From the NCBI GenBank assembly GCA_012026975.1, contig VEPG01000056.1, positions 3,871 through 67,870 on the forward strand: 64,000 nucleotides of DNA, written 5' to 3'. The notes beneath the pieces were generated by a model. That model did not search any database, was not told where the DNA came from, and worked only from the letters and a program-made list of their open reading frames with translations. Shown in pieces: positions 289 through 64,000 of the stretch (positions within the stretch are counted from its first letter, which is position 1; every line of letters begins with the position of its first letter). The DNA is from Desulfuromonas sp. GTDB lineage: Bacteria; Desulfobacterota; Desulfuromonadia; Desulfuromonadales; BM103. The translations under genes were made by a program, and so were the position numbers.

Positions 289-290
289 TC

Positions 291-41504: not shown

Positions 41505-41528
41505 GCGGGCGTCATCGTATCGTCCCAG

Positions 41529-41933
41529 TTGGGGGCGACCTGTGACACCACCCAGTACGACACCGATGTTCACACCATCAGCCTGGCGGCTGACTACGCC
41601 GCCACCGAGAAACTTGACCTGCGCGCCGCCGTCAGCTTCAGCGATGCCAAGGCCGAGTGGAGCAGCCTGTACATCAACTATCCGGCCGGGGTCACCGATC
41701 CGGTCCTTCTGGAGATGTATGACCCGACCGCCCTGTCGAGCATGACCGACTACTCCGACCTGCACTACCAGCAGACCGAGCTGTCGCTGGGCGGGACCTA
41801 CCAGGTCACGCCGCAGTTCTACGTGGCCGCCCAGGCTGCCTACGAGATCTTCAAGGACAAGGATCCCTACGTCTACGGCGATCTCGATGGCGAGTCCTGG
41901 AACGGTTATCTGGGGGTCGGCTACAAGTTCTAG
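41529..41933 (+). CDS. C-terminal portion of the same MtrB/PioB-like barrel (same frame as 39570-41504)
   Basis: No RBS and no ATG; the ORF track starts it at TTG. Ends ...NGYLGVGYKF with terminal Phe, typical of OM barrels. Only 8 sense codons separate it from the TGA. Confidence 0.6.
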   Translation: MGATCDTTQYDTDVHTISLAADYAATEKLDLRAAVSFSDAKAEWSSLYINYPAGVTDPVLLEMYDPTALSSMTDYSDLHYQQTELSLGGTYQVTPQFYVAAQAAYEIFKDKDPYVYGDLDGESWNGYLGVGYKF

Positions 41934-47852: not shown

Positions 47853-48641
47853 ATGCGCAAAACTCTCTTCAATATCACCAAGATCTTGCTCTGCCTGCTT
47901 GCCGGCCTGACCCTCCCCGCTTTTGCCGTCGATCGTCCACCGGCCGACTACACCGATCCGGTGACCGGCATGGAGTTCATGGCGATTCCGGGTGGAACCT
48001 TCACGATGGGTGACAATCAAGACAAAACGGCAAGCCCGGCACACGAGGTAACGATCAAACCGTTTTTGCTCGGTCGGTTCGAGGTAACCTTCGAGCAGTA
48101 TGCCAAGTTCTGTTCGAGTACCGGACGACTGATTCCCTCCGATAGCGGTTGGGGGATGGCCGACCGGCCTGTAATCAACGTGTCCTGGCAGGACGCCGTC
48201 GATTTCACCAAGTGGCTGTCGGAAAAGAGCGGCAAGACGTTTCGCTTACCAAGCGAGGCTGAATGGGAGTATGCGGCACGCGACGGAGCAAAGACGCAGT
48301 TCCCGTGGGGGGACGAGATTGGGGTGAATCGGGCCAACTGCAACGGTTGCGGCAGTCCGTGGGATGGCCGCATGACTGCAACGGTCGGTTCCTTTACGCC
48401 AAATAGTTACAGTCTTTACGACATGATCGGCAACGTCTACGAATGGTGTCTGGATGCCCGGCACGATAATTACCTTGGGGCACCGGCCGATGGGTCGGCG
48501 TGGGAGGATGCGAAGGAAAATTTTCACATGACCCGTGGCGGTTCCTGGTACCTGCCACCGGCTGAGATGACCATCATCCGTCGTTGCTGGGCGAATGATG
48601 GACGACGTGAAATCGGGTTTCGGGTCGTTCTTGAAAAATAA
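47853..48641 (+). CDS. formylglycine-generating-enzyme (SUMF1/FGE-sulfatase) family protein, secreted
   Basis: Signal peptide, then MEFMAIPGGTFTMGD...RLPSEAEWEYAARDG...NVYEWC...RGGSW, the classic FGE-family motifs. Confidence 0.8.
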   Translation: MRKTLFNITKILLCLLAGLTLPAFAVDRPPADYTDPVTGMEFMAIPGGTFTMGDNQDKTASPAHEVTIKPFLLGRFEVTFEQYAKFCSSTGRLIPSDSGWGMADRPVINVSWQDAVDFTKWLSEKSGKTFRLPSEAEWEYAARDGAKTQFPWGDEIGVNRANCNGCGSPWDGRMTATVGSFTPNSYSLYDMIGNVYEWCLDARHDNYLGAPADGSAWEDAKENFHMTRGGSWYLPPAEMTIIRRCWANDGRREIGFRVVLEK

Positions 48642-48687: not shown

Positions 48688-51150
48688 TTACTGCAAGGAC
48701 GTTGCCTCCCGCTTCTCACGATTAAAGCTTTCCAGGATTTCCTGAACGGCCTGCTCTTTTTCTTCGGGTGAGTTACCGAGTCCCGTGAGGGGCAGAGTCT
48801 GTCTTTCCCGTTGAACCACACCGTACAAATCTGCCCGATTTTGATCTGCCCGTCTCATTCTGAGAAGCTGGTCGGCAAGATTGTAGCGACTTGAGTATTC
48901 AAGGATTGGAAAAAGATCTGTGTTCAGGTCTGCGTCACGGGCAAAGGCTTTAACGGTCTTTCCGGAAAAGAGATAATGCTTGGACAGCAAATCTGCAGGG
49001 GTTTCGGTGACACTGAGCCGGCCTTGAAAATACCGGGCAAGTCGATATTTGACCCCCTGATAGTGAATCCCGACTTCGTCAACAGAACCGAGCATAAACA
49101 GGTCGGGTCCATTAATAAACAGGTGGACACCGGGGAAAACTTCAGCGAAAGTTCTCAGCAAGACCTTCAGATTTTCCTGAGACAGATCGTAAAGCGGTAT
49201 CCACTGACAGAAAAGTCCTCCCGGATTTAGGCGTTCCCGGACAATCTGGAAGAACTCCAGGGTGAAAAGATTGGCGTTACCGGCCTGCCAGGGATTTGAC
49301 GGTTCAGAGATAACCACATCGTATTTGCCTGGGTGCAACAGCAAAAAATTCCGGGCATCCTGCAAATAGGTCGTGACCCGCGAATCGGATCTGGAATTCA
49401 GATTGACCTCTTGGAAGTAATCCGCTGCCTTCATCACTGCCGGGGAAATCTCCACGCAATCGATCCTTCGCGCCGGATACTGGGCAACTGCGCCGAGAGT
49501 CACGCCGGTGCCAAGGCCTATCACCAAGACATCCTGCGGATTGGGATGAATCAGGATTGGCAACTGCCCGAGCAGAATCTGGGTCGCCATATCCCTGGTT
49601 CCTCCATCGACCTTGCCATTGACGGTAAAGTACCGGACTCCGTTGTTCATATCCTCCATGACTGCGACCGTTGCATCCAAGCCTTCAATACTTTCGAGCA
49701 ACTGCTGACGGGCCAACCGCCCTTGAAAAGCAGTTTTCGGATCTCCCTCTGAAACATAGTAATAGTAGACTCCGCTGTTCATCAATTTGGCATCCCAACG
49801 AAATGGCAAGCCGATCATCACTATCGCCACAACAACCGCTCCCCCCAGCCAGCACTGGGCAGAAGCTACCATCGTTCGATAGAGACCGATGGTTATCGCA
49901 CTCCCAAGTAGCAGCAAAAAGGCTGCCGTCAGCTTGAAACCATTCTGTAATCCAACGGCAGGAACAATCCAAAACGCACCGACCAGGCTCCCCACTACTG
50001 CTCCGAGAGTATTGTAAAGAACAACCTTTCCGACCCGTTCGCCCATGCCTTGCGTATCAGGAGAATGAATCGCCATTGCCGCCGGAAACATGGCCCCAGA
50101 GAGCAGGGCCGGAGGCCCGATGACCAGAAAGACGATCGGCAGCGCCGCAAACACATAAAACCACCAATTCTGGCCTGACATCTGGTTGATGGTCAGAAGT
50201 GCATAGGGAATCTGATCGTAGAAGGGAAGTGTTCCGAGGACGTAAAGGCCGGACAGGATCGCAAGACCGGCGAAAAGGGTCGGGAGATTACGAAATTTCT
50301 TCTGCAACGGCACAAAAGCCGCGCTGCCAATTGCCATGCTGATCAAGTAGACAGAGAGAATGCTCGCAAAGGCATAGGTGGAATTTCCCAGAAATAAGAC
50401 CATCACCCGGTTCCACAACAGTTGCAGGGAGAGGGCACAACTTCCGGCGAGAAAAGTCCCGGCAAGGATCGGTGTGGAGGTGTTCTCTGGCGTCGACGTG
50501 CGTTCCGGTACGACCGGTTCATGAAAATCAAGCGGGCGTCGACTCCACCAAAAGAATACGACCGCAAGCCCCATATTGATAACATAGGCAAAAATCTCCG
50601 TACAGGAAAGCCCCCAGTACGGTATCAGGACATACCCGGCCAGAAATGCGCCGACCGCCGCGCCGACAACATTGACTGCATACAACAAGCTGATCTCTCT
50701 AGGGAAGTCTCCTCGTTTCAGCAGACTGCCGACAACCGGCAAGGTTCCCCCCATGCACAAGGTCGGCGGCAACAGGAGCAGCGAAGAGAAACCTAACAGC
50801 AAAATCGTGGAGAGGGCCGAGGCAATTGAAAATTGCCCATGCAGGGCGACATAACCAGATTCGACCCCGTGCAGGGCCGGTCGGAAGAGCATGGCGGAAA
50901 GGGCGATCCCCAATTCCAGGAGAGCATAGAGGCGCAGGGGATTGCGTATCCGGTCGGCAATCCGCCCGAAGAGCGCGCCACCCAGGGCCAACCCGCCCAT
51001 AAAGGTCGCCACGACAATCCCCACCGCCCAGATCGTCGAGCCGAACGTCAGGGAGAGATACCTGGTCCACAGCACCTCGAGGACCAGTGCGGAAAACCCG
51101 GAGCCACAAAGTGCGACCAATAACGTGTTTTTGTAAGGGGTTGACATCAT
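48688..51150 (-). CDS. fused polytopic membrane (MFS-like) / spermidine-synthase-like methyltransferase-fold protein
   Basis: The N-terminal ~480 aa contain many TM helices. A PABS-like domain follows (VLVIGLGTGVTLGAVAQY...DVVISEPSNPWQAGNANLFTLEFF), then a ~150-aa tail. GC is visibly lower than in the flanks. Confidence 0.7.
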   Translation of the reverse strand: MMSTPYKNTLLVALCGSGFSALVLEVLWTRYLSLTFGSTIWAVGIVVATFMGGLALGGALFGRIADRIRNPLRLYALLELGIALSAMLFRPALHGVESGYVALHGQFSIASALSTILLLGFSSLLLLPPTLCMGGTLPVVGSLLKRGDFPREISLLYAVNVVGAAVGAFLAGYVLIPYWGLSCTEIFAYVINMGLAVVFFWWSRRPLDFHEPVVPERTSTPENTSTPILAGTFLAGSCALSLQLLWNRVMVLFLGNSTYAFASILSVYLISMAIGSAAFVPLQKKFRNLPTLFAGLAILSGLYVLGTLPFYDQIPYALLTINQMSGQNWWFYVFAALPIVFLVIGPPALLSGAMFPAAMAIHSPDTQGMGERVGKVVLYNTLGAVVGSLVGAFWIVPAVGLQNGFKLTAAFLLLLGSAITIGLYRTMVASAQCWLGGAVVVAIVMIGLPFRWDAKLMNSGVYYYYVSEGDPKTAFQGRLARQQLLESIEGLDATVAVMEDMNNGVRYFTVNGKVDGGTRDMATQILLGQLPILIHPNPQDVLVIGLGTGVTLGAVAQYPARRIDCVEISPAVMKAADYFQEVNLNSRSDSRVTTYLQDARNFLLLHPGKYDVVISEPSNPWQAGNANLFTLEFFQIVRERLNPGGLFCQWIPLYDLSQENLKVLLRTFAEVFPGVHLFINGPDLFMLGSVDEVGIHYQGVKYRLARYFQGRLSVTETPADLLSKHYLFSGKTVKAFARDADLNTDLFPILEYSSRYNLADQLLRMRRADQNRADLYGVVQRERQTLPLTGLGNSPEEKEQAVQEILESFNREKREATSLQ

Positions 51151-51268: not shown

Positions 51269-54200
51269 CTACCACGGCGTCGCCGTGTTCCACCCAGGTT
51301 CATCCCCCGCATCCGTCGTAGCGCCGTTGCCATTGGCATCGATGCGACGGTGGCAGTTCTGGGCACTGGTCGTGTAGGCAAGTTGCTTGCTTCCCGTCGA
51401 ATCCAAAGCCGCCCAGGTGGTCCAGTTGGTATCGCTGGCGAACTGGTCGTCCCAGGTATTGAGCCGGGTATCGAGGCAGTTGGTGATCATCAGCCGCGGC
51501 AAGCGTGAGGCATGCGGGGTATGACACTTTGAACAACTGAAGCTGTGGTAGTCGGCGTTGACCGAGGTCCCGGTGATATCGAGATTGGTCAAACCGGTAC
51601 CCGCCGTACCCCATTTGAATTCGGCAGCTGTATACCCATAACGCGTACCGCTTCCGCCCACGCGCGGGGCATTCATCGAAATGTCAGGCGCCGTTGCCAA
51701 GTCTTGCGAGCGGAAGCCACCCATCCAACTCTTGCCGGTATCCTGATAGTCCGTGACCCCCTGGTAAGCCATGTACGGCCGGGTGACGCGGGCGTTGCCG
51801 CTCCCCGTCGGCAGACCGCGCTTGGAGGCGCCGAAGATGTTGCGCGCGGCCGTGGTGTCGTTGGTAAAGCCCTTCACCGAGTTGTTATGACCGATCCAGG
51901 CGGTCTGGATACTGGCCTGAGCATGACACAGGTTGCACAGGCCGTCGTTGGTGGCGTAGGCGTAGGTGGCGTTCGGGCTGGCGTTGTTCTGATCGATCTG
52001 GTAACCGCCATTGCCGGTTGTTGTAAGGCCACCACGCGGCACCGCACCATAGACGTTATCCGTCTGGGCAAAGGTCACACCTGCCTTCGGCGCCCCGTCT
52101 TCCTTGTAACCACTGGGCCGCCAGGTGCCGCGCAGGTAGGGTTTGCCGGAGGCCGTATCGCCAGTCGTCTTATTCAGGTCGTGGACATCGTGGCAGTAAG
52201 AGCAAACCACGAAATCCACAGTCTCCTTGGTGGTCCCCACGGTGGAACCGGTATCGTGGGACGACCAGCGGGCATGTCTTGTCGACGGTTTGGCGCTCAG
52301 GATACCGTTCTTATAGGTGAAGAGGGCGCTGCTCCAAGTGCCGGCGGCGTCGAACCAGCTCTTCTTGTTGTAGCTACCGTAGTTGTAAGTGCCGCCGTTA
52401 TTGGTCCCCCATTCGGAAATATCACCGGCATCGGCCAAAGACCCGTTGTTGTTCTGGTCATGGCAGTTCCAGCACATTTCCGGTTCGGTGGCCCCCGAAG
52501 TTGATGTGCCGCCAATGAAGAGGGCGCCATGTTCACCACTCGAGAGCACGTAGTTGATGCCAACGGTCGTATTATTGGCAATGGTGATAACGCCGGTTCC
52601 GGTCTTATGGAACGGATGGCACTTGCCGCACTGGGAATCCCAATTGGTCGAAGTGGTAATTGTGTCTCCCGTCAGGGCTTTCAAATGCGAGCCATAGACG
52701 GTCGTCTTACCCGTAGCGTTGCCTGTCGGCCAGACCACCACCGGCCCTGAGCCGCCAGGGCCATGACAGCCACTGCAGCCACCACCCTTGAAGCCGTCGC
52801 TGTGCTTGTGGCAGGTGGTACAGCGGGTACCGGTGTTGTGCGTATTGGTTTCGTTGATCCCCCGCCGGTAGTAACCGGCCTTGGTCTGGTTGTGGCAGAT
52901 CTCGCAGATGCCGTTGGTCGCCGTACTGACGCCGTAGCTGTTGGTGGCGTTGCCAGTAAGCGCGGTGAAGGTCACCGCCGTGATATTCGCCGTATCCTGC
53001 GGCGTACCGTAACTGTCGGAGCCAATCGTGGCATCCGTCGAGGTGAGCGGCGCCGAGATGTGGCTGCGGACCATATAGTAGTTGGTGTCGCCGTGTGGGT
53101 CGTGGCAGTCGACGCACTTGTAGTCATAGTTATTAGGCCATGTTTTAGTGCTGCCGGTTATTGCCTTGGTATGCGCTTGGATAGTCGGCGTATCGTGGCA
53201 ACCGGCCTGCAGGCAGAGTCCGTTGGTGTTGGTGGCATAGGCGCCGAGCCGGAACGGATCGGTGGCCGAGGCCGCCGGGGAATGCTGTGCAGCGCTGCTG
53301 TGGCAGGTGTAGCAGCCTGGGGTCGCCGTACCGGTGTAGGAAGACAGGTTGGCAGCCGCATTGCTACTCCAGGTATAAGCCGTCGTGCGGCCATGACCAT
53401 ACGTATTGTACTGACCGGTGAAGGTCACCGGGTTGGGGATCGTGTCGATGGCCGGCTTGGTGGTGCCGGTCTCGGTCGCGGCCAGGCCGCCGCCGTGGCA
53501 GTCGAAGCAGCCGTTGGTCAAGGTGCCGCCCCAGGTCGGGGTCGCCCCGCCGTGGCAGACCGTGGCGGCACAGGTGCCGTCGTCAAGATGGGTGGCACCG
53601 GCGGCATTATAGTTGACCCCGCCGGCAGTGCTGGCGGTGTCGGTGTAGGTGCCCGCACCGCTATTCATATAGAAATTCACCGTCAGATTCTGGTGCAGTC
53701 CGCCGCCGCCACCCGTGGCCGTGTAGACCGATGCCCCACGGCTCCCTGAGACGTTGTAGGTGGCATTGCCGTGGCAATTATCGCAGTCGGTGTAGGTGGC
53801 ATCGTTGTTGGCATGGGCAGCATGACTGCGGCCGACGCTGGCCGCGCTCGGCAGCGGGCCGGTGCCGCCGGTGTTGTGGCAGCTGCCGCAGGTGACCGTC
53901 GCACTCCACTGCGGCGTGGTCACGCCGTTATGGCAGATGACATTGTTGCAGGTGGTGCTGGCACCGACGAGCGCGCCGTTGCGGGCAGCCGCGGCCGCTT
54001 CGTAATTCATTGCGGTGGCGAAGTTCAGGTCATCGGCGCCGTTGATGTGGTTGGCGCCGGTCGCCACACCGCCGCTGGTTGCCGTCGAGTTGTGACAGTT
54101 GAAGCACTCGTTGACGTTGGTGGCGTTCGGCAGCGAGTTGGAAGCCAGATGCTGGCTATGTTTGTTGGTGGCCATCGCCTCCAGATGGCAGATCGCGCAG

Positions 54201-57106
54201 TTGGCCATGCCGGTGGTATTCCAGGCATAGGTGGTCTGCGCCGGAGCGGTGCTTGGCGAAGCATCGGAACGGTGGCAGAAGTTGGTCCCGCAACTGCCGT
54301 AGCTGGTGCGGAAGGTGCCGCCGTAGACCGGTGCCGGCGTCAGGTTGCCGTCGACATTGAAAGTGCCGTTGAGATGGTTGGCCGCCGGCAGGGTGCCGGT
54401 CGGACTCCCCCAGGCGACAGAGGCATTATGACAGCTGGCACAGTTGATGGTCTTGCCGAAGGTGGTTGCGGCATTGGTATGCACCGTGTGCTTGGTGTCG
54501 CTGGTCGGGTTGTTGTGGCAGGCCGAACAGTTCATTGTCGTCGGCAGAGCCGAGGTAAGCACCGTATGGGTCGGAGTGACATACCAGTCCGGGGTGGCTA
54601 CAGGCTCGCTGCCGGCGGCCGCCGTGCCGTACTGGACGTGGCAGTCGACGTTGGAGCAGGTATTGCCGGTGGTCTCGAAGGTGCCCAGGGTGCCGGTTTC
54701 GTCCGCACCGCCCCAGAACACCTTCGGTGCCGCGGCGGTCAGCGTCGTCGTCTTGAAGACATCGGCGGCGGTGGCGCCCATGTGATCGCTGTCGCCAATG
54801 GCGTGGCAGTACTGGCACAGGGCCTGCTGCTTGGTGCTGCTGGCGGCATCGGCCAGCAACTGGTCGACGGTCTGCGCGTAGACCTTGCTGGCCAGCCACT
54901 GCATGTGCAGCTGGTGGGCGCCGACGATGTCGGGCGTAGTGGTGCCGTTGTCGGCGCCGGAAGTGTTCGGCCAGATCTGGCCGGTCGCCGTGCTGCCGTG
55001 GCAGGAATCAGTGGCGCAACCGGTGGCCTCGACCGTGCCGTTGATATGGAAGCTGGCGACAATGGCCGGCGGGTCGGTGGTCGTGGTTACGGTTGAGCCA
55101 TGGCAGTTCTTGCAGGTCGCCGGGAAGGTCTGCGTGTTGTGGGTGGTGTCGGACGGCGGCAAACCATGGCAATAGTTGCTGCAGGTGCCGGCCGTACCCG
55201 GAACATAGGTGGTCCAGTTGGCGGTCCAGGCCGGGGTGGAATCAAGCGCACCGGCATCGCCACCCGGCGTCTTGAAGCCGTGACAGTAGACCGAACAGCT
55301 TAAGGTACCGGAATCGTAGGCTGTCGTGGTGGTGTTGAGCTGGGCCCGGGCACCGAAGGTTAGGTCGGCCGGAGCGGCGATGTTGGTCAGGATATGCCCG
55401 GCGGCATTGACTGTGCCGGGAACGGTATGGCAGTCGGCGCAGGCAACTGCCCCGCCGTTCATCAGGTTGCTGGTGAGCGTCAGGTGGGTCAGGTGCGCGC
55501 CGGCGGCGTTGGCGCTGCGGAACGGCGAGGCCGCGGTCGGGTAGGCATCAGCGGCGACGCCGGAGTCGGTCTTGGCCCGGTTGTGGCAGAAGGTGCAGGT
55601 GCTGGTGTGTGTAGAGCCCCAGGTCGGGCCGGCGCCGGCCGGGCCGCCGTAGAGGGTAGCCGCGTTTGTGCCGCCGTGACAGTCGGTGTTCTCGCACTTG
55701 CCGAGGGTCGGCGTCGAAGTCTGGTTCCAGGCCGTGTCGGCGACATGATCGGCGTTCTTGTCGTAGCGGGCGGTGGCTTTGGCGCCGATGCCACTGACGT
55801 TCATCTCGATGGTGCCGCGACGGTGGCGGGAGGTGTAGGTACCCCCCGGGGTCTGGCTGCCTTCAATGTGGCAGGTGTTGCACTGATAGGCGAAAGTGGT
55901 GCCATGGGTGGCATGGTTCCCCTGGACCGCGCCGGTAGCACCGGTACGGGCGACCCCGTCAAGAACCGGCAGCGGGTGGCAGCCGCCGCAGCCGAGACCG
56001 GTGGTGATCAGGACCGAGTTGGAATCCCACGGGCCGCCGAGCGGCGCCATGTCCGGCGCGAGCACACCGAGCGCCGTGATGCGCGAAATGCAGGTGGTTC
56101 CATCAAGGGCACCCGATGTGATGTCGTAGGTGACCCACAGATACTTCGGGGTGCCCGAGGTCACGGTACGACTGGCGGCGGCGATCGCCGTCAGATCGAC
56201 AACTGTTGATTGGCCGTTCCAGTTGGCGACCGTCGTCGTACCGAGAACCCCGTCGCTGAAGTTGGTGTTCGCATCGATGTGCACCTTAAGGTTGGCAATC
56301 GTGCCGGTGGCCGCGATGTTGACGTCGTCAACCGTCGCCGAAGTGATGACGCAGCTACCGTTACCGGTGGCGTCGGAGTTGATTTGCAGGCGCTGCATCT
56401 GGACGTTGGTCTGGCTGGGCTGCGCCGTGGTCGCCACCGTGGTGTTGCTGGTGACGGTCAGGCTGTCCACCACCGCCGGGGTGAAGGTGATGGCGATATC
56501 ATCGGCATAGAGGCTTGAGGTCGCGCCGTTGGTGGCGCCGGTAGTGCTCGACAGCGAGACGGTGATCTGGTTGACGTTCTTGGGCAGGGTCAACGGGAAA
56601 ACGGTCGCGGTCGTATTGGTGACGTTCGTCCAGGCGCTGTTGGCGCCGACTGTGCCAGTAAAGATATTGACCGTGGTCGCATCGCTGTAGCGCAGATCAA
56701 TGGTAATGGTCCTGGCCGTACTGGCGGCGAGGGTCCACTGTTCCATCGCCCAGACGACAACGTCAGTCTTGGCGGCAATGACACCACCGGCCGAAACGGT
56801 AACCGACTGGGTTGCGGTTCCGGTCGAGGCCTTGGCTCGTCCGGTCACCGTTTCGAGGAACGAACCGGTTCCCGCCAGCGTCGCGTGATTCTGCGCGGTC
56901 GAGACGCTGGCGACGCCGTTGGTCGCCGAACCGAGCGACCAAGTGGCGTTCGGGCTGGGGAAGCCACCGTCGGTCACCATCGCCGCGGCCCAGACGGTCG
57001 AAGAAAAAGTGAGGAGCACCACCGCCAACAGGCCGGCCACGCCAAACCGCCAGCGGCAAGATGTTCTCTTCACGGTCTGCTGCGCTTTTGCACGTCGAAT
57101 ATCCAT
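51269..57106 (-). CDS. giant multiheme c-type cytochrome (CxxxxCH/CxxCH repeat family), about 1945 aa
   Basis: Manual count gives about 23 CXXCH plus about 9 CX3-4CH motifs, starting at CGGCH (nt ~55990). A heme-free beta-rich N-terminal region of about 330 aa precedes them. Signal ...GVAGLLAVVLLTFSSTVWA. ATG 57106 (GAGGG 5 nt upstream) is preferred; the ORF-track ATG 57202 would give a pre-signal N-terminus of more than 70 aa. Confidence 0.85.
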   Translation of the reverse strand: MDIRRAKAQQTVKRTSCRWRFGVAGLLAVVLLTFSSTVWAAAMVTDGGFPSPNATWSLGSATNGVASVSTAQNHATLAGTGSFLETVTGRAKASTGTATQSVTVSAGGVIAAKTDVVVWAMEQWTLAASTARTITIDLRYSDATTVNIFTGTVGANSAWTNVTNTTATVFPLTLPKNVNQITVSLSSTTGATNGATSSLYADDIAITFTPAVVDSLTVTSNTTVATTAQPSQTNVQMQRLQINSDATGNGSCVITSATVDDVNIAATGTIANLKVHIDANTNFSDGVLGTTTVANWNGQSTVVDLTAIAAASRTVTSGTPKYLWVTYDITSGALDGTTCISRITALGVLAPDMAPLGGPWDSNSVLITTGLGCGGCHPLPVLDGVARTGATGAVQGNHATHGTTFAYQCNTCHIEGSQTPGGTYTSRHRRGTIEMNVSGIGAKATARYDKNADHVADTAWNQTSTPTLGKCENTDCHGGTNAATLYGGPAGAGPTWGSTHTSTCTFCHNRAKTDSGVAADAYPTAASPFRSANAAGAHLTHLTLTSNLMNGGAVACADCHTVPGTVNAAGHILTNIAAPADLTFGARAQLNTTTTAYDSGTLSCSVYCHGFKTPGGDAGALDSTPAWTANWTTYVPGTAGTCSNYCHGLPPSDTTHNTQTFPATCKNCHGSTVTTTTDPPAIVASFHINGTVEATGCATDSCHGSTATGQIWPNTSGADNGTTTPDIVGAHQLHMQWLASKVYAQTVDQLLADAASSTKQQALCQYCHAIGDSDHMGATAADVFKTTTLTAAAPKVFWGGADETGTLGTFETTGNTCSNVDCHVQYGTAAAGSEPVATPDWYVTPTHTVLTSALPTTMNCSACHNNPTSDTKHTVHTNAATTFGKTINCASCHNASVAWGSPTGTLPAANHLNGTFNVDGNLTPAPVYGGTFRTSYGSCGTNFCHRSDASPSTAPAQTTYAWNTTGMANCAICHLEAMATNKHSQHLASNSLPNATNVNECFNCHNSTATSGGVATGANHINGADDLNFATAMNYEAAAAARNGALVGASTTCNNVICHNGVTTPQWSATVTCGSCHNTGGTGPLPSAASVGRSHAAHANNDATYTDCDNCHGNATYNVSGSRGASVYTATGGGGGLHQNLTVNFYMNSGAGTYTDTASTAGGVNYNAAGATHLDDGTCAATVCHGGATPTWGGTLTNGCFDCHGGGLAATETGTTKPAIDTIPNPVTFTGQYNTYGHGRTTAYTWSSNAAANLSSYTGTATPGCYTCHSSAAQHSPAASATDPFRLGAYATNTNGLCLQAGCHDTPTIQAHTKAITGSTKTWPNNYDYKCVDCHDPHGDTNYYMVRSHISAPLTSTDATIGSDSYGTPQDTANITAVTFTALTGNATNSYGVSTATNGICEICHNQTKAGYYRRGINETNTHNTGTRCTTCHKHSDGFKGGGCSGCHGPGGSGPVVVWPTGNATGKTTVYGSHLKALTGDTITTSTNWDSQCGKCHPFHKTGTGVITIANNTTVGINYVLSSGEHGALFIGGTSTSGATEPEMCWNCHDQNNNGSLADAGDISEWGTNNGGTYNYGSYNKKSWFDAAGTWSSALFTYKNGILSAKPSTRHARWSSHDTGSTVGTTKETVDFVVCSYCHDVHDLNKTTGDTASGKPYLRGTWRPSGYKEDGAPKAGVTFAQTDNVYGAVPRGGLTTTGNGGYQIDQNNASPNATYAYATNDGLCNLCHAQASIQTAWIGHNNSVKGFTNDTTAARNIFGASKRGLPTGSGNARVTRPYMAYQGVTDYQDTGKSWMGGFRSQDLATAPDISMNAPRVGGSGTRYGYTAAEFKWGTAGTGLTNLDITGTSVNADYHSFSCSKCHTPHASRLPRLMITNCLDTRLNTWDDQFASDTNWTTWAALDSTGSKQLAYTTSAQNCHRRIDANGNGATTDAGDEPGWNTATPW

Positions 57107-57208
57107 GGCTGCCCTCATCCCCTTGCCGCACGTATCGTCAAGACGCTGGTTGATCATCGTTCGTACCATCTTTGCCATTCTGTCGGCCGCGAGTTTCATC
57201 ATCTCCTC

Positions 57209-60200
57209 CTACGGCGCCCAGTCCGGCGTGGGTTTCAGGTGACAGGCCACGTTCGAGCAGGTTTGTGTCCCGGTATCGTAGGTTGGCGGGGTGCCATTGA
57301 GGAACCACACGTTGGCCGGCGCCGCGGCGCCGAGGATGTTGCTCGACGGGTCAAGGTGGTTGGCCTGGTTGGACATGTCGTGACAGACGTCGCAGGCCGG
57401 GTAATTGGTGCCGTTCCAGTCGGCCAGGACGCCATCCGGGTTGCCGGCGGCCATGCCGATATCCTGAACCAGATGGATACCGTGCTTCGGATGGGAGCCG
57501 GTGTTCGGCGGCAGGCTGCCGTGGCAGGTGGTGCAGGTGGCAAAGACTTCGGTGACGCCGTTGATATGCTTGGTCACGTCCTTGAAGGTTGCCGCCCCCG
57601 TATTCATCGTATCGGTATGGCAGTTGCCGCACTGGGCCAGCGTCTCGCTGCCGGTATGGCCGGTGATCAGCGGTGGGGCACCATGGCAGCGGTTGCAGTC
57701 GCCGGTCGCTGTGATGGAACCGGTCAGATAGGCACTCTGGTTCCAGCTGGGCATGGTGTCGACGCCGTTGGCCATGGGGGCGCCGTGGCAGTAGTTGCTG
57801 CAGACGCCGGTGGAGTAGCTGGCCGGGGTGCTGTTGGCTGTCGCCAGGGCGCCCCAATTGTTTTCAGCCGGCAGGCTCGAATCGATGTGCCCGACCACGT
57901 TGACCTTGTTGACATAGGTCGACTGGCCGGCCATGGCCGAAACCGTGGCATTGTGGCACTGGTCGCAGGTGATATCCGCCGAATAGTTGTTGAGCGAATT
58001 GAGGTGGGCCGCATGGGCACCGACCTGGGCGTCGGTATCGGCGGTATCGCCACTGGTGTCGCGACCGGTTTTGGTCGGATCGGACATGCCGTGGCAGACT
58101 GAACAGTTGCCATTGGTGGCGCCGGTCGTCCACACCGCCGAAACACCGCCATGGCAGTTGGTCGTGGAGCAGGTATAGAGCGGCTGGTCCGGGTTGGTCA
58201 GGCTGTTGGTGTTGTATTCGAAGGTATCGATGGTGCCGGTGCCGCCGTTGGCCGCGGCCACGGAGACATCGCGGGTCTTGTTGATATGATAGGTCAGCCC
58301 GCCGGCCGAGATTGCACTGTTATTGCTGGCGGTCAGCACATGGCAGTCGTCGCAGGTATAACCGAACTGCTTGTTGGTATCGGATGGATCGGTGCCGATG
58401 TGCGCCAGATGCGAGGCGGTCAGCGTCGTCGTCGTGCCCGGGCCGCCGTGGCAACCGGTGCAGCCGACGGTGGTCGTCCAACTGATGGATTGATACGTCG
58501 GGGTCGCCTGGCCGGTGCTGTGGCAGTAGACATTGGTGCAATTGGTGCCGTTCCAGTTGTTGTTCGGCGTGGCATCGCTGTCCCAGGTGCCGAGAATGCG
58601 GATATCGCGCGTGCCGTTAACGTGGAAGGTCTTGTCGGCGATCGCCTGATCGTTGGCATCGACCGTACCGTCGTGACACATCTGGCACGGCTTGATCGAC
58701 ATGACCGCGGCGGCGCTGACGTGCGAGGGGTGGCCGTTACTTGCCATCGGACTGCCCGAGGCCGCGTTATTGTTATGGCAGCCGGTGCAGTTGGTCGGCA
58801 GCGTCCCGGTCCAGGTTGCAACCACGTTCGGCGCCCCGGCCGTTGCTTTGCCGTTGTTGTGACAGGCGTTGAAGCCGCAGGTGCCGTTGGTGTAGGCGAA
58901 GCTGCCGTCGGGCGAGGTCGCCGCGGCAGTCCCCGCGGCCGTGTAGGTGCCGCCGCCGGCAAGGCCGACCTCGGCCGCCTGCCGGGTGCTGACCACACCG
59001 CCGGAGTGGGTGGTGGCCGCCGGATTGTGGCAGGTCCCACACTGGAAGATGTAGGCCGTCGTCGTGCTGGTGTTGGTGGTCAGGTTGCCGGTCGCCACCG
59101 TGGCGCTGGCATAGTGCTTGGCATGATTCCCCTCCAGCAGGCTGCTGGCGGTATGACAGCCGTCGCAGTTGATGTTCGGGCCGCCCCAGGTCGGGGTGTT
59201 GGTGCCATGACAGTAGATACTCGAACAGGTACCGTAGGTGGCACTCGGAGCCTTGTTGCCGGTCGTGCCGCTGGCGGCGGCGGTTTTGCCGAAGGCCGTG
59301 TACTTGGCATTGGTGCCGATGCGGGTATCGCCCGTAGCCAGCGCCCAGGCGACGTTGCCGTCGAGATGGGCGGTATCGCTGTAGGCCGGATGACACTTGT
59401 TGCAGGTCAGCTTGACGTTGCCGGTGCTCAGCACATGGGTGTTGTGGCTGCCGGTCTGGGGCGGGGCCGTGGTGCTGGTGCTGTGACAGGCGCCACAGCC
59501 GGCCTGGCTGGTACCGACCCAGGACGGTGAGTTGATCAGGCCGCCGTTACCGGCCCAGTTGCCATGGCAGTAAACCGTACAATTCAGATTGTCGTTAGCC
59601 ACCTTGTTGAGAACCGTGACTCCGTCACTGGCGACAAAGGTGTAGGTATTCGTCAGCAGGGCATCCTGCGGGAAGCTCAGGGTCCCGCCGTTGACCGTGT
59701 TGACGAAGCCCGGCACGTTGGTGCTGTTGGCGGCGACCCCCATCTGGATGGTGTAGCTCACCTCCGGCATGGTGTTGCCCGTGTGACAGGTCTCGCATTT
59801 CATCAGCTTGGTGGTGACGTGCTTGGCATGGGCGCCGGGGGCGGTCGCCGGGTTGGCGAGAGCGCCGGTCGCCGAGGGGGCAAACACCATGTTGCTGCTG
59901 GAGGTCGGCGGGTTGCCGTGGCAACTGTTGCAACCAGGGGAGTTGAAACCCTTCTTATGCGGGTGGCAACCCATGCAGTTGGACTGGTTGGCGTGGTTGT
60001 TGTTGCCACCGTTGGTCAAATTGTTTGCCGTGTTGTAGTTGTGGAACTTGTTCTTGCTGTGGCAGGCCTCGCAGATGCGGTTGGAGGTCGCGTGGCCGCC
60101 CGCGTCATTGCCGAGTTGCGACGTACCCGCCTCGACGGTCAATAACTGCACCGCGCCGGCGCCGATTGGGAAGGTATCGGTCGGCGCAGTCAACGTGGTC

Positions 60201-62386
60201 TTGACCCGCTTGACGTTGGTGGTTGAGCGTACATGACAGGTGGCGCACTCGAATTTCCCGTACTGGGCGCTGGTAATCCCCCAGCCATTGACCGTCTTGC
60301 CGCTCTGGGCGATCGGCCACTTGGTCGAGCCGGTGGTCACCGAGTTGTGCACCATGAAGTCGATTGCGGTGTTGTCGACGGTGATGTTCCCGGTCTGGGT
60401 CTTCACGACCCCGCCGCAATCCGGGTCGGTGCCGGTGACCTTGAAGGAGACCACCGTTGGCGTGGTAAGGCCGAAATTGCTGCTGTCCCAAGGGGTTTCG
60501 GCATCGACGGCATTGATCTGGTAGGTGAAGTTGGCGACGTTGCCGGTCTTGGTGTACAGGCCGGCAAGGTTGACGATCAGACCGCTGACCGTCTGGCCGG
60601 CGGGGATGGTGAGCGTCGATGGGGTCGCGTCGGTGCAGCCGCCGCCGGTGAAATCGACCGTGTTGTCGACGCTGGACGCGATGCTGCTGGTGTTGCCGGC
60701 CGCATCCGTGGCGGCGCCGGCGGGGATCGACGCGATCACCGTGCCGTTGCCGGTGACGGCTACGGTGACGGTATAGACGGTCGGACCACCGGTCACGCTG
60801 GTCACGCTCATGCCGGTCGCCGTGCCGCCGAGGGTGACATCGGTGGTCGCGAAACCGGTGACGTTTTCACTGAAGGTCGCCGTGAACGTAATCGGCGAGG
60901 TGGCGGTCGGGTCCGCCTGCGCCGCGGCCTGTTCGATGGCCACGCTCGGCGGGAGATTGTCGAATGTCACGGTGTTGTCGGTGCTGGTCGAGGCAACGTT
61001 GGGAAGACCGCTCGTCGAACCGGTCGCCACCCCGGCACCGATGGTGGCAATGACTGTACCGCTATCGGTCGCCGTGACGACCACGGTGTAGGAAGTGCCG
61101 CTCCCGGTGACACTGGTGACACTGGCCGGGGCCGTTCCGGCAAGGGTGATATCACCGGCAACAAAACCGGTAACACTCTCCGAGAAGACCACCTTGTAGG
61201 TGATCGTGCCGTTGGTCGGGTCAGCCTGAACAGGCGCGGTGGTGCTCTGGTTGATCGTCACCGTCGGATTGACCAGCGTGGTGAAGGTGACCGTGTTGTC
61301 GGTGCTGGTCGAGGCGTTGTTGGGGTTGCCGAAAACATCCGTGGCCACGCCCGCGCCGATGGCGGCGATGACGGTGCCGGATGTCGTCATTCCGGTCACC
61401 GCCACGTTGTAGGTCGTGCCGCTGCCGGTCACGGTCGCTGTCTTCGTGCCACCGGCCGTCCCCGTAATCGTCACGTCGCCAGTGGCAAAGGTCGTCGTCG
61501 ACTCGCTGAACACCACGGTGAAATTGATCGTCGCGCCGTTGGTCGGGTCCGCCTGGGCACCAGCCTGGTTGATGGTGACATTCGGATTCCAGTTAATGAC
61601 CACCTTGCCGGCAAATCCGGCGCCGCCGGATTTGTTGCCGCCGGACGAACGGTTCCCCGAACCACTGCCGCCGCCGCCGGGACCACTGGCGGGGGTGGTG
61701 CCGGCGCTATTGGCCGCGCCGCCGGCGACACCCGGACCGCCACCAGTGACGGCCGCCGCACCGGCATTGCCGGCCTGGGTCGTGGTGGTGAAGTTACCAT
61801 TCGCCGCAGTGCCGGCCGAGCCGCCGCTGCCACCGCCGGTTTTGGCCACGTCGTTATTGGCGCAAGCACCGTTTCCGCCCGTGAACTTGGTGGTCCCGAA
61901 GCCGGAACCCGCCGCGCCGCCGGCGCCACGCGTACCGCCACCGGCGCCGTCACTGAGACCACCACCGCCGCCGCCAGGAGCCATGATGGTCGTGGCATTG
62001 TTGAAGAAGCTGGCGGTCCCGGCACTACCGGCAGCGCCGGCATTACCTGCCCCGCCGGCACCGACCTGGTAGGGGTAGGAGCCTCCCGAGGTCACGGTGG
62101 CCGTCCCTTTCGAATAGGCACCGCCACCGCCACCGCAGCCACCGTAGTTATCGTTGGTCGCGTCACCGCCACCGCCACCGCCGGCGCCCCAGACTTCAAC
62201 CGAAACCGAGGTAACAGCCGCCGCCCCCGAGGGGGCCGTCCAGTTGCCGGTCGCTACGGTCGAGTAAACCTGCTGCCCCGCCCGGGCGCTCCCGGCCAGG
62301 CCAATCATGCCGAGCGTGACGGTAATGATCGTCACCAGTGCCGTGCGCAGCAGACCATTCATGGCGGATGCATTCTGTCTGTTCAT
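57209..62386 (-). CDS. giant chimeric protein: glycine-rich domain + 3 Ig-like repeats + multiheme (CxxxxCH/CxxCH) region, about 1725 aa
   Basis: Signal MNGLLRTALVTIITVTLGMIGLAGSARA. Gly-rich region VEVWGAGGGGGG...GGCGGGGGAYS... (nt ~61592-62269). Three ~105-aa repeats. About 19 CXXCH plus about 7 CX3-4CH motifs from CATCH (nt ~60247) onward. ATG 62386 has GGAAGGTG 5 nt upstream. Confidence 0.85.
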   Translation of the reverse strand: MNRQNASAMNGLLRTALVTIITVTLGMIGLAGSARAGQQVYSTVATGNWTAPSGAAAVTSVSVEVWGAGGGGGGDATNDNYGGCGGGGGAYSKGTATVTSGGSYPYQVGAGGAGNAGAAGSAGTASFFNNATTIMAPGGGGGGLSDGAGGGTRGAGGAAGSGFGTTKFTGGNGACANNDVAKTGGGSGGSAGTAANGNFTTTTQAGNAGAAAVTGGGPGVAGGAANSAGTTPASGPGGGGSGSGNRSSGGNKSGGAGFAGKVVINWNPNVTINQAGAQADPTNGATINFTVVFSESTTTFATGDVTITGTAGGTKTATVTGSGTTYNVAVTGMTTSGTVIAAIGAGVATDVFGNPNNASTSTDNTVTFTTLVNPTVTINQSTTAPVQADPTNGTITYKVVFSESVTGFVAGDITLAGTAPASVTSVTGSGTSYTVVVTATDSGTVIATIGAGVATGSTSGLPNVASTSTDNTVTFDNLPPSVAIEQAAAQADPTATSPITFTATFSENVTGFATTDVTLGGTATGMSVTSVTGGPTVYTVTVAVTGNGTVIASIPAGAATDAAGNTSSIASSVDNTVDFTGGGCTDATPSTLTIPAGQTVSGLIVNLAGLYTKTGNVANFTYQINAVDAETPWDSSNFGLTTPTVVSFKVTGTDPDCGGVVKTQTGNITVDNTAIDFMVHNSVTTGSTKWPIAQSGKTVNGWGITSAQYGKFECATCHVRSTTNVKRVKTTLTAPTDTFPIGAGAVQLLTVEAGTSQLGNDAGGHATSNRICEACHSKNKFHNYNTANNLTNGGNNNHANQSNCMGCHPHKKGFNSPGCNSCHGNPPTSSSNMVFAPSATGALANPATAPGAHAKHVTTKLMKCETCHTGNTMPEVSYTIQMGVAANSTNVPGFVNTVNGGTLSFPQDALLTNTYTFVASDGVTVLNKVANDNLNCTVYCHGNWAGNGGLINSPSWVGTSQAGCGACHSTSTTAPPQTGSHNTHVLSTGNVKLTCNKCHPAYSDTAHLDGNVAWALATGDTRIGTNAKYTAFGKTAAASGTTGNKAPSATYGTCSSIYCHGTNTPTWGGPNINCDGCHTASSLLEGNHAKHYASATVATGNLTTNTSTTTAYIFQCGTCHNPAATTHSGGVVSTRQAAEVGLAGGGTYTAAGTAAATSPDGSFAYTNGTCGFNACHNNGKATAGAPNVVATWTGTLPTNCTGCHNNNAASGSPMASNGHPSHVSAAAVMSIKPCQMCHDGTVDANDQAIADKTFHVNGTRDIRILGTWDSDATPNNNWNGTNCTNVYCHSTGQATPTYQSISWTTTVGCTGCHGGPGTTTTLTASHLAHIGTDPSDTNKQFGYTCDDCHVLTASNNSAISAGGLTYHINKTRDVSVAAANGGTGTIDTFEYNTNSLTNPDQPLYTCSTTNCHGGVSAVWTTGATNGNCSVCHGMSDPTKTGRDTSGDTADTDAQVGAHAAHLNSLNNYSADITCDQCHNATVSAMAGQSTYVNKVNVVGHIDSSLPAENNWGALATANSTPASYSTGVCSNYCHGAPMANGVDTMPSWNQSAYLTGSITATGDCNRCHGAPPLITGHTGSETLAQCGNCHTDTMNTGAATFKDVTKHINGVTEVFATCTTCHGSLPPNTGSHPKHGIHLVQDIGMAAGNPDGVLADWNGTNYPACDVCHDMSNQANHLDPSSNILGAAAPANVWFLNGTPPTYDTGTQTCSNVACHLKPTPDWAP
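60641..61585 (-). repeat. three tandem ~315-bp coding repeats (Ig-like modules)
   Basis: Repeat consensus: VTINQ..AQADPTNG.I.F.VVFSE.VTGF..GD.T..GTA....V.G.GT.Y.V.VT....GTVIA.I.AG.A.D..GN.N..S.S.DNTV.F. Seen three times at ORF-track residues about 285-390, 390-495 and 496-597. Confidence 0.8.
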
Positions 62387-62408
62387 GTTGACACCTTCCA
62401 AAGCGCCT

Positions 62409-62450
62409 GATTTCAAACTGTTCATTATCATGATCTTACTTTCCGGGCAA
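62409..62450 (-). promoter_or_regulatory. candidate internal promoter with overlapping Fur-box-like operator upstream of the chimeric cytochrome gene
   Basis: Minus strand: TTGCCC (62445-62450), a 17-nt spacer, then TAATGA (62422-62427). GATCATGATAATGAACA overlaps the -10 element. The adjacent GTTTGAAATCA shares GATTTCAAA (plus strand 62409-62417) with the feo-locus motif. Confidence 0.4.
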
Positions 62451-62501: not shown

Positions 62502-64000
62502 TTACTGCGGCACGCTGGCGTGACAGGCCGAACAGTTGCCCGAAGCCGACACCGTACCCCAGGCCGGGGTCAGGATGCCGTTATGGCAGTCGACGGTGGA
62601 ACAGGTCTTGGCGCCCGAGTTCCAACCCGGTACGACGTTCTTGCCGCTGTCGTAACCGAGACCGGTCGCCTTTTTGTAGTCGCCGGAGACGCGCGACCAC
62701 GAGGTGTTGAGCGACGCGACGGTGGTGATGTCGTCACGAATCTGGGCCTTCGACTTGAAGCCGGAGAGGCTGGCGAAGGTGACCGTCGGTGCACCGTCGA
62801 GGTGCGCGGACGAACTGACCTTGATGACCGCCAGTTCGTTACCGGTGACCGGGGTGTTGCTATCACTGTGGCAAGTGGCGCACAGCGTGTTGCCGGCGTT
62901 GTACTCGACCGTCATCGTGGAGTTGTGACAGGTCTGGCAGCCGAGGGTGTCGGAAGTGGCACTGTTGCCATGTGCCGCCCCGGCATCGGTGGCCGGAACC
63001 GCCGACGACGGCATCAGGCCGTTGCGGTCATCATCATACAAGGTGTCGTAATGGATACCGACAGCGTGCAGGTTGTGCGCATTGGTGGTCGGGCTGTTGC
63101 CATGACAGCTGGCGCAGGACATGCCACCGTTCGGGTTGGTCAAATCCCAAACCGCGGTGTCGGGATAGACGCCGTCATTGATGCCGTCACTATGGCAGTA
63201 GACGCCCGAGCACTTGCCGGTGATTGAGGTAAAGGCTGCCGTGGCGCTGTTGTTGCGCTTGGCGTTGACGGCCGGGATGCCGGCCTCGCCCGTCGAGGTC
63301 AGCTTGGTGTTGGGCGCATTGTTGCGATGCAGGGCCACATCGGCCGGGTGGCACTGGCCGCAGCCCATGAGCAGCTTGCCGGTCGCGTCGTAGCTGACAC
63401 TGTACCAGTAGGTTGCATTGCCATAATCGCTCAGGGAGAGCTTCTTGCCGGTCAGCACCGTCGCCATGCTGGTGTGCGACTTGTGATCGGGATCGGAAGC
63501 TTCGCCGTCCTTGTATTTGCCCGTACCGTGGCAATCGAGGCAGTTGTCGCCGCCTTCGGTCTCGACGATGCCATTGATGTGCTTGGTCACGTCGGTGAAG
63601 CCGTTGTCGGCGGCCACGGTGTTGGTATGGCAGGCGGAGCAGTCGGCATCGTTCGGATGGCCGTTGGCCGGGCTGGGCGGATAGCCGTGGCAGAAGGCGC
63701 AGTCGTGGCTGGCAGTGCCGGTGAAGAACGGGGTGTTCCAGTCGGGGACGTTGAGGGTGCCCGACCAGCCGTGACCGATCTTGCTGCCGTCATGGCAGTA
63801 GCTGGTGGCGCAGGTGCCACCCGGGGCGCCGGAGTAGTTGGTCGCGGAGCTGTTGGTGTTGGCCAGCGTACCGAAAACCAGCTCGGCCGGAGAGGTGCTG
63901 TCGAAGTGGCCGACGGCGTTGACCTTGTTCACGTAGGTGGCCTGGGCCGCCATGTTGTCGACCGTGGTCTTGTGGCACTCGCCGCAGGCGATGTCGGAGG
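62502..64000 (-). CDS. multiheme c-type cytochrome of the same CxxxxCH/CxxCH family, 3' part (5' end outside window)
   Basis: The frame stays open upstream of the ORF-track Met at 63953 to the window edge (...SDIACGECHKTTVDN-MAAQATYVNKVN...). 9 CXXCH plus 3 CX4CH motifs are visible. Paralogous to the last ~300 aa of the 57209-62386 product (STYVNKVNVVGH / ATYVNKVNAVGH; DVTKHING in both). Confidence 0.85.
   Translation of the reverse strand, partial: SDIACGECHKTTVDNMAAQATYVNKVNAVGHFDSTSPAELVFGTLANTNSSATNYSGAPGGTCATSYCHDGSKIGHGWSGTLNVPDWNTPFFTGTASHDCAFCHGYPPSPANGHPNDADCSACHTNTVAADNGFTDVTKHINGIVETEGGDNCLDCHGTGKYKDGEASDPDHKSHTSMATVLTGKKLSLSDYGNATYWYSVSYDATGKLLMGCGQCHPADVALHRNNAPNTKLTSTGEAGIPAVNAKRNNSATAAFTSITGKCSGVYCHSDGINDGVYPDTAVWDLTNPNGGMSCASCHGNSPTTNAHNLHAVGIHYDTLYDDDRNGLMPSSAVPATDAGAAHGNSATSDTLGCQTCHNSTMTVEYNAGNTLCATCHSDSNTPVTGNELAVIKVSSSAHLDGAPTVTFASLSGFKSKAQIRDDITTVASLNTSWSRVSGDYKKATGLGYDSGKNVVPGWNSGAKTCSTVDCHNGILTPAWGTVSASGNCSACHASVPQ

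Follow-up and report, generated by a model that had tools for sequence, protein, structure and literature searches.

How long extracellular cytochromes are retained and aimed is poorly understood, and attention has mostly been given to lipid anchors, porin complexes, and polymerization. Among the described counterparts of the protein considered here are those of a survey of Desulfuromonadia, in which long multiheme cytochromes (MHCs) with 27 hemes form an uncharacterized cluster, are predicted to be extracellular, and have a modeled length of about 350 Å (PMC11492766). This "cytochromome" survey also mentions "novel beta-sheet domains", and its main text contains no mention of "glycine", "Ig-like", "immunoglobulin", or "adhesin" (PMC11492766). 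From a different field, the tail fiber of cyanophage Pam3 has been described as combining a variable distal tip with a glycine scaffold that is conserved, and its likeness to S16 gp38 and ALK has been pointed out (PMC9608196). The present analysis concerns a 64,000-nucleotide (nt) stretch of DNA from Desulfuromonas sp. (contig VEPG01000056.1, positions 3,871 to 67,870; hereafter, the window), in which a gene on the minus strand places a domain related to such fiber tips in front of a 26-heme cytochrome.

The most economical reading is that the glycine-rich head would be a binding tip that docks the heme "wire" to a defined surface. Taken as a whole, namely, that the gene encodes a secreted, elongated protein for extracellular electron transfer, carrying a TNF-like/glycine-rich (TG) binding tip on an Ig-like stalk, this reading is given a probability of about 0.55. 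The presence of a binding-type domain at the front end suggests, by analogy, that the wire may be directed or fastened to a particular surface. The gene had been singled out in an earlier reading of the nucleotide sequence made without database searches (the sequence-only reading), which described a glycine-rich domain and three Ig-like repeats grafted onto a multiheme body.

Overall Architecture of the Giant Cytochrome

The gene occupies a single unbroken open reading frame (ORF; 57209..62431, minus strand) of 1740 amino acids (aa) counted from the first ATG. The start codon is likely the ATG at 62386 (M16 of the longest ORF), since a GGAAGG Shine–Dalgarno sequence is located 7 nt upstream and equivalent Met starts are found in the orthologs P0122 and P0123. 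The resulting protein of 1725 aa, with a predicted mass of ~168 kDa before heme attachment, has the length anticipated in the sequence-only reading. Numbered as in the longest ORF, its modules are as follows:

62279..62386, minus strand, start codon and Sec-type signal peptide (aa 16–51; predicted cleavage between ARA and GQQ)
61583..62278, minus strand, head: predicted TNF-like β-sandwich and glycine-rich lattice domain, Gly_rich_2 (aa 52–283; Pfam PF21722, AlphaFold2, Foldseek)
61268..61582, minus strand, Ig-like repeat 1, Big_12 (aa 284–388; Pfam)
60953..61267, minus strand, Ig-like repeat 2, Big_12 (aa 389–493; Pfam)
60641..60952, minus strand, Ig-like repeat 3, Big_12 (aa 494–597; best Pfam stretch aa 491–588)
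60362..60640, minus strand, small β-module with the Cys pair C599 and C672 (aa 598–690)
57209..60361, minus strand, multiheme body with 19 CxxCH and 7 Cx3-4CH motifs (aa 691–1740 and stop codon)

ORF, Pfam, and motif scans thus reproduced the order and coordinates of the modules in the sequence-only reading, from the signal peptide through the glycine-rich region, the three Ig-like units, and the Cys-pair module to the hemes. The signal peptide ends in LAGSARA, followed by GQQ, without a lipobox Cys; its hydrophobic core and a cleavage pattern of A-x-A followed by G(Q/R)Q are common to all orthologous signal peptides. Inspection of the sequence of the giant cytochrome (57209–62386) revealed no C-terminal sorting signal, membrane anchor, or lipobox. 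The third-position GC content of the gene is 0.82, like that of other genes in the window, and long ORFs on the opposite strand, as seen here, commonly arise by GC-richness in a genome of ~64% G+C.

The body comprises 1050 aa and follows a head of 640 aa. It opens with the motif HNS..TGSTKW...GWG...YGKFECATCH (aa 695–733), which includes the first CxxCH at aa 729; the 26 heme motifs counted, all located after the non-heme modules, agree with the earlier estimate of about 26. TIGR01904 matches in seven stretches (160.7 bits against a cut-off of 27), and Cytochrome_C7, MtrC/MtrF domain II/IV (55.3 bits, four stretches, partial), and GSu_C4xC__C2xCH are the Pfam families recognized. By these matches, the body is a chain of putative c-type heme sites of the Geobacter CxxxxCH/CxxCH type (TIGR01904, PF09698). 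Searches of PDB sequences returned no chain of the polymerizing cytochrome nanowires OmcS, OmcE, and OmcZ and no MtrC/OmcA/MtrF chain at E ≤ 0.01 with the protein or E ≤ 1 with the family profile. Identity with the decaheme cytochromes MtrC, OmcA, and MtrF was ruled out, given the 26 motifs, the lack of alternating β-barrels and of a lipobox, and the lack of a PDB sequence match.

Structure of the Glycine-Rich Head

Glycine accounts for 32.6% of the 232 residues of the head (aa 52–283). The sequence-only reading had called this region reminiscent of phage tail-fiber or surface proteins and had proposed domain searches and structure prediction as checks. The domain search matched Gly_rich_2 (PF21722) from end to end (protein residues 61–281 against profile positions 5–225/226, 41.4 bits against a gathering cut-off of 24.3, E 2e-10) and Big_12 in three stretches. 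An AlphaFold2 model, built from an alignment of 81 sequences comprising family members and Gly_rich_2 homologs, gave a predicted local distance difference test (pLDDT) score of 91.8 and a predicted template modeling (pTM) score of 0.90, so that the head is predicted to fold, with ~9 β-strands and long, extended glycine-rich stretches. The predicted structure consists of a TNF-like β-sandwich and a lattice of glycine-rich strands, the combination that characterizes the solved members.

A Foldseek search against the PDB indicated that the head bears the highest structural similarity to the Pam3 tail fiber (7ypx_A, E 7.6e-8, template modeling (TM) score 0.62), followed by two chains of the mycobacteriophage Bxb1 tail tip (TM 0.57–0.59) and then by the TNF-like/glycine-rich domains of ALK and LTK (E about 1e-3 to 1e-2). 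Among predicted viral structures, 234 match at E ≤ 1e-3, the best with a TM of 0.84 and 39% identity, and annotated tail fiber proteins of Escherichia phage Goslar, Achromobacter phage Mano, and Xanthomonas phage FoX6 are included. At the sequence level, the head profile matches PHROG 863, of category "tail" (E 5e-10), and, among solved entries, RemZ of Flavobacterium johnsoniae (E 2.4e-13, the best) and the Pam3 fiber (E 2.5e-9). Collectively, the agreement of profile, predicted fold, and PHROG turns the earlier resemblance into a well-founded homology to phage tail-fiber tips and surface adhesin domains, beyond composition alone. Within the family, 45 of the 56 invariant columns of the head are Gly, and the remaining positions vary, a pattern that gives an indirect hint of ligand binding by a variable tip. 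Only 12 of the 232 residues are charged.

Conservation and Exchange of the Head

The protein belongs to a family of eight clusters at 90% identity (P0121–P0127 and P0129), whose members are 1665–1738 aa long and 55–100% identical to the query. All eight carry PF21722, PF19078, and the cytochrome Pfam families, and they align collinearly along their whole length, signal peptide included. The assemblies in which they occur are separate ones, from Logan, JGI, and ENA. An assembly chimera, which the sequence-only reading had named among the findings that would overturn it, is excluded by these eight separately assembled clusters and by the shared operon described below. Compared with the 75%-identical ortholog in locus L005, the ratios of nonsynonymous to synonymous substitution rates (dN/dS) are 0.45 for the glycine-rich region, 0.36, 0.20, and 0.18 for Ig1, Ig2, and Ig3, 0.36 for the β-module, and 0.20 for the heme body, all of which are rough values because synonymous sites are near saturation. 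The head evolves about twice as fast as the heme body.

Outside the family, the same body is found with other N-termini. A metagenome scan with the family profile retrieved five distant loci (27–39% identity) that match over the heme body only, the matches beginning at about residue 650–690 in four of them, and a contig scan of species representatives yielded only distant (28–35%) heme-body matches, in Myxococcota and other metagenome-assembled genomes. The opening of the body is conserved across these relatives as (L/M)HNS..T.S.KW..GGWG...GKYG.F.C.TCH. In six of them (L009, three genes of L010, and two genes of L011), this motif directly follows a hydrophobic signal peptide; the adjacent giant genes at L010 2288–15800 and L011 9689–21716 contain 35, 56, and 59 heme motifs and reach 2526 aa. 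In P0230 (L008 10001–14722), the nearest outgroup cytochrome with 35% identity and 23 heme motifs, the body motif is preceded by an unrelated region of ~240 aa, three Big_12 units, and a different β-module. In L012, it is preceded by a head of ~750 aa with fn3 domains. Three kinds of non-heme heads of 650–750 aa are therefore present, in the giant-cytochrome family, P0230, and L012. Since the same body occurs both without a head and behind heads of three or more kinds, these comparisons show that head and stalk form an exchangeable cassette, which was inserted behind the signal peptide and ahead of the conserved heme body, and the description of the head as "grafted" is borne out.

Ig-Like Stalk and β-Module

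The three tandem repeats of ~105 aa that had been assigned to 60641–61585 are Big_12 units (PF19078, 35.3 bits against a gathering cut-off of 27, three stretches in tandem) spanning nt 60641–61582. With the small β-module that follows, they make up the stalk, which is acidic (isoelectric point of about 4). The further statements that the repeats are near-identical and that the segment is prone to recombination and copy-number variation did not hold. The units share 52–69% identity at the protein level and 61–66% at the DNA level, the longest exact word in common is 23 nt, and Tandem Repeats Finder detected no ~315-nt period in the region. Moreover, exactly three units are present in all eight family members and in the outgroup P0230.

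Ig1 differs from its neighbors in ancestry. Ig2 is closest to orthologous Ig2 (88% to that of P0122) and Ig3 to orthologous Ig3 (72–74%), whereas Ig1 is 80–81% identical to the units of P0230 and 72% identical to those of an unrelated Big_12 protein, with at most 57% identity to orthologous Ig1 of its own family. At the DNA level, Ig1 is 74–75% identical to the L008 repeats over 290 nt and shares only short patches with L005 and L006. Because Ig1 resembles the P0230 units more than Ig1 of its own family, the sequences indicate a different Big_12 subtype acquired in an old module swap rather than ongoing repeat instability. The Big_12 units of P0230 itself are 97–99% identical as protein and 87–91% as DNA, and this near-identity is judged from the sequences to be kept by selection, not by recent duplication.

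Between the Ig-like repeats and the hemes, the β-module with a Cys pair was correctly recognized in the sequence-only reading (aa 598–690). C599 and C672 are invariant in 8/8 family members and probably form a disulfide. AlphaFold2 predicted about eight strands for this module with pLDDT values of 64–73, and Pfam searches at E ≤ 10 assigned it to no family, the sole match being a chance-level one to TetR_C_3 (E 0.27).

Distribution of the Domain and Apparent Novelty of the Fusion

A word-indexed search with the glycine-rich profile failed to recover the family and yielded nothing but short Gly_rich_2 proteins that stand alone; an exhaustive hidden Markov model search over 1.84 billion cluster representatives was used instead. 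It found Gly_rich_2-type domains in 13,380 representatives at E ≤ 1e-3 and in 4642 at E ≤ 1e-10, many of them long and with multiple copies. Among the best 148 of the 13,380 relatives, CxxCH motifs occur only in the representative of the giant-cytochrome family; further heme fusions may exist among the other ~13,200. A sample of 36 cellular Gly_rich_2 proteins contained no cytochromes. All 36 are multi-domain proteins with partners of the sort usual in secreted surface proteins, namely, Big_1, Big_7, ASH, DUF11, CARDB, PKD, invasin, and SdrD domains and a sorting domain of the type IX secretion system (T9SS) in 9/36. More than 1500 Big_12 proteins were also returned with the head region as query, which is uninformative on the fusion.

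No paper naming PF21722 or Gly_rich_2 was found in the literature, nor was any description of a multiheme cytochrome with glycine-rich and Ig-like domains in this arrangement, in line with the remark in the sequence-only reading that such an architecture was not known to be described. All component families (Gly_rich_2, Big_12, and CxxxxCH/CxxCH cytochromes) are known, and the fusion of a giant cytochrome to a non-heme surface domain has precedents in S-layer fusions of anaerobic methanotrophic archaea (ANME) and in the Ig domains of OmcZ. What appears to be undescribed is a TG head of the tail-fiber type that is carried on an Ig stalk and forms with it an exchangeable cassette in front of a conserved 26-heme body.

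Operon and Genomic Neighborhood

The gene is flanked by two further multiheme cytochrome genes:

62502..64000, minus strand, MHC-A, multiheme cytochrome gene upstream in the same operon (frame open to the window edge; 12 heme motifs visible)
51269..57202, minus strand, MHC-C, multiheme cytochrome gene downstream (longest ORF 1977 aa; 32 heme motifs)

In L005 and L006, the two relatives for which flanking sequence was read, the order is MarR, MHC-A, the glycine-rich cytochrome, and MHC-C, with an FGE-sulfatase-like gene nearby, and the window contains the matching trio of MHC-A, the gene under study, and MHC-C. The MHC-A counterparts located directly upstream of the glycine-rich cytochrome encode 1778 aa (L005) and 2140 aa (L006), and the syntenic MHC-C genes 1758 aa (L005) and 1643 aa (L006). 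The MHC-C ORF is separated from the gene under study by a gap of 6 nt. MHC-C is matched by Pfam models and TIGR01904, and its first heme motif is at aa 405; to the ~330 non-heme residues from the signal region to this point, which constitute a second "head" in the operon, Pfam searches with a threshold of E ≤ 10 assigned no family. A phage tail fiber or receptor-binding protein was ruled out as the identity of the gene, its neighbors being multiheme cytochromes, the FGE-sulfatase-like gene, and housekeeping genes, and the orthologous loci having the same chromosomal operon. The housekeeping proteins of the window share 90% clusters with proteins named "Desulfuromonadales bacterium", in keeping with an uncultured relative of Geobacter and Desulfuromonas.

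The FGE-sulfatase-like gene adjoins the three-cytochrome operon at 47853–48641 (plus strand) of the window, at 23441–24382 in L005, and at 20164–20946 in L006. L005 and L006 also contain glycosyltransferase (GT2, PMT_2) and TPR genes near the operon. These neighbors may point to a conserved modification or glycan system tied to the cytochromes. Directly downstream of the operon in the window, a gene at 48688–51150 (minus strand) encodes 820 aa with a weakly matched membrane region resembling the major facilitator superfamily and a spermidine-synthase-like methyltransferase domain.

A decaheme gene resembling MtrA (360 aa, 10 CxxCH, Paired_CXXCH_1) is located directly before a porin of the MtrB/PioB type at 38460–41933 (plus strand). 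The porin is divided into two ORFs, 39570–41504 (profile positions 17–399 of 635) and 41529–41933 (profile positions 514–598), which suggests a stop codon, a frameshift, or a sequencing error. No outer cytochrome gene adjoins this MtrAB-like pair in the window, and the giant cytochromes, 10–20 kb away, could be its extracellular partners. Elsewhere in the window, an unusually large enzyme of glucan metabolism is encoded at 12914–17875 (plus strand), a 1653-aa fusion of an alpha-amylase catalytic domain with a starch/glycogen synthase (Glyco_transf_5 and GT1).

Proposed Function and Alternative Explanations

The protein would be exported by the Sec pathway and would receive its hemes in the periplasm, after which it would leave the cell, with type II secretion as a plausible route; MHC-A and MHC-C would probably take the same route. 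These steps follow c-type cytochrome maturation and the outer cytochromes of Shewanella and Geobacter. A cluster of type II secretion pseudopilin and assembly genes resembling GspI/J/K/L at 285–3680 (plus strand) of the window, more than 45 kb from the giant cytochromes, is a candidate for their export. Outside the cell, the heme body would form a wire tens of nanometers long in one polypeptide, and the TG head, held off the body by the Ig stalk, would serve as a specific binding tip. Head and stalk presumably add perhaps 15–20 nm, as estimated from typical domain sizes. By docking one end of the wire on a defined protein or glycan surface, i.e., a partner cell, the cell's own envelope, or the biofilm matrix, the head would position the electron conduit. 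The wire itself may measure roughly 30 nm, by analogy with the 27-heme models (PMC11492766).

The docking reading is preferred because, in every characterized relative, the TG fold serves as a tip that binds a protein or a cell-surface receptor. Known ligands of the fold are proteins or cell-surface receptors, such as phage host receptors and ALKAL. By inference, a cell or matrix target is favored over a mineral, since no hematite-type motif is present and no mineral-binding member of the TG fold is known. The hematite-binding motif [ST][hydrophobic][ST]P[ST] occurs 0 times against 0.3 expected, which lends no support to mineral binding by that route. The low charge of the head and the acidity of the stalk do not decide between cell, matrix, and mineral targets.

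Several points weigh against this reading. Localization, heme loading, and binding are predictions from sequences and models, and the ligand is hypothetical. No demonstrated ligand for Gly_rich_2 in any cellular protein was found in the literature, and no solved structure matches the heme body by sequence, only reaction-center cytochrome subunits being marginally similar (E 0.06–0.3). The AlphaFold2 model of aa 590–900, based on nine sequences, was poor (pLDDT 40.8), so that the geometry of the junction between the β-module and the hemes is unreliable. The type II export route is a guess, and its genes are located 52–62 kb from the cytochrome gene. In addition, the head may evolve faster because constraint on it is relaxed and not because it adapts to a target, and it could be lost during maturation, like the Ig domains of OmcZ.

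A possible but rather unlikely alternative is that head and stalk anchor the protein to the producer's own surface (lipopolysaccharide, extracellular polysaccharide, or an outer-membrane conduit), with the body projecting outward and the free C-terminus meeting the acceptor. Some means of retention is needed in a protein without lipobox, sorting signal, or membrane anchor, the conserved glycosyltransferase, PMT_2, and TPR neighbors could build a surface glycan, and the MtrAB-like pair is without an adjacent outer cytochrome. Yet, the TG domain is distal in characterized relatives, forming the tip of the phage fiber (PMC9608196) and the N-terminus of RemZ, opposite its C-terminal domain (CTD) (PMC10994853). 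The present evidence does not separate self from non-self binding; anchoring and targeting differ only in which end faces the cell. A bolder, and on balance unlikely, form of docking is that the TG head is a receptor-binding tip from the phage-fiber domain pool, which docks the wire on another cell for direct interspecies electron transfer; head swaps and the faster-evolving head would then set partner specificity, much as fiber-tip exchange sets the host range of phages.

It seems improbable that the head is instead an assembly module that bundles chains of 26–32 hemes into a cable without any external ligand, through TNF-like trimerization or association with MHC-A and MHC-C. TNF-like folds and phage fibers are trimeric, as is Pam3 gp24 (PMC9608196), the three giant cytochrome genes are always adjacent (window, L005, and L006), and MHC-C likewise has ~400 aa before its first heme motif, without a family match. 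However, trimerization of the Pam3 fiber proceeds mainly via an N-terminal helical bundle, which is absent here, and contacts between its TNF-like and glycine-rich parts are loose (PMC9608196). The many stand-alone and multi-copy Gly_rich_2 proteins point to a general binding module, and the TG domains of ALK and LTK are not known to be constitutive trimers, which likewise counts against an assembly role. OmcZ provides a precedent for a pro-domain or export aid that is cleaved off outside the cell, leaving the heme body to work alone: its 50 kDa precursor is trimmed of C-terminal Ig domains by OzpA to a 30 kDa filament subunit (PMC9473688). For the giant cytochrome, this explanation is very improbable, as no subtilisin-like protease gene is present in the operon of the window, L005, or L006, a 640-aa head of four fold types under purifying selection in 8/8 members would be costly for a disposable part, and headless relatives exist, so that export evidently does not depend on the head. 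An artifact, i.e., an assembly chimera, a frameshift, or a meaningless low-complexity Gly stretch, might be suspected in a GC-rich region with long spurious ORFs on the opposite strand, but it is the only alternative that is effectively excluded. A chimera and low complexity are set aside because the architecture is conserved and collinear in eight clusters from separate assemblies, the operon is conserved, and dN/dS is below 1 in every module; furthermore, the third-position GC of 0.82 is that of other window genes, and the glycine-rich region, which a curated Pfam domain covers over its full extent, is predicted to fold with a pLDDT of 92.

The family suggests another solution to the retention and aiming of long cytochromes, in which a conserved heme wire is combined with exchangeable heads resembling adhesins or phage fibers. 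A defined ligand of the head would give a handle on how partners or surfaces are selected during extracellular and interspecies electron transfer, a model from nature for directing conductive proteins to targets, and a first functional context for the uncharacterized Gly_rich_2 family with its ~13,000 cluster representatives. Even if the head were only a spacer or pro-domain, the family would still exemplify domain shuffling in surface cytochromes. The architecture thus turns the question of cytochrome positioning into a direct experiment.

Comparison with Known Systems

The tips of phage tail fibers, including Pam3 gp24 (7ypx/7yfw), S16 gp38, and the Bxb1 tip, share with the head a TNF-like sandwich that runs into a lattice of glycine-rich strands. 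In the Pam3-type tips, as here, the domain is at one end of an elongated molecule, and the Gly scaffold is fixed while non-Gly positions vary. In the present protein, by contrast, the domain occupies the N-terminus of a chain that continues into Ig domains and a 26-heme cytochrome, and phage context, a helical bundle for the baseplate, and an adjacent chaperone are all absent. RemZ also begins with a Gly_rich_2 domain heading a long, multi-domain secreted protein, and the match extends over chain residues 2–228. Unlike the giant cytochrome, which has no CTD, RemZ is exported by the T9SS via its C-terminal CTD and contains no hemes. Desulfuromonadales are not known to have a T9SS. The TG domain of ALK and LTK belongs to the same composite fold class and, in these receptors, binds a protein ligand, and the Pam3 paper notes the resemblance (PMC9608196); yet, the similarity is weak (TM about 0.3, 13–17% identity), and these are eukaryotic receptors with no link to electron transfer.

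On the cytochrome side, the 27-heme cluster, e.g., its representative from Geobacter metallireducens (PMC11492766), resembles the giant cytochrome in taxon, in heme number (27 versus 26), and in mass (131 kDa versus 108 kDa for the body). Both are single-polypeptide wires encoded outside porin–cytochrome operons, a likeness at the level of description. OmcZ of Geobacter sulfurreducens is likewise an extracellular multiheme cytochrome with appended β-sandwich domains of the Ig type (PMC9473688); it has 8 hemes, however, OzpA removes its Ig domains, which are located at the C-terminus, before polymerization, and the PDB searches found no sequence match between OmcZ and the giant cytochrome. The S-layer/multiheme fusions of ANME (PMC9012536) are archaeal, carry an S-layer domain in place of the TG and Big_12 domains, and are proposed to span the S-layer, but they share with the present protein the design of a giant cytochrome fused to a non-heme surface domain that would fix its position at the envelope.

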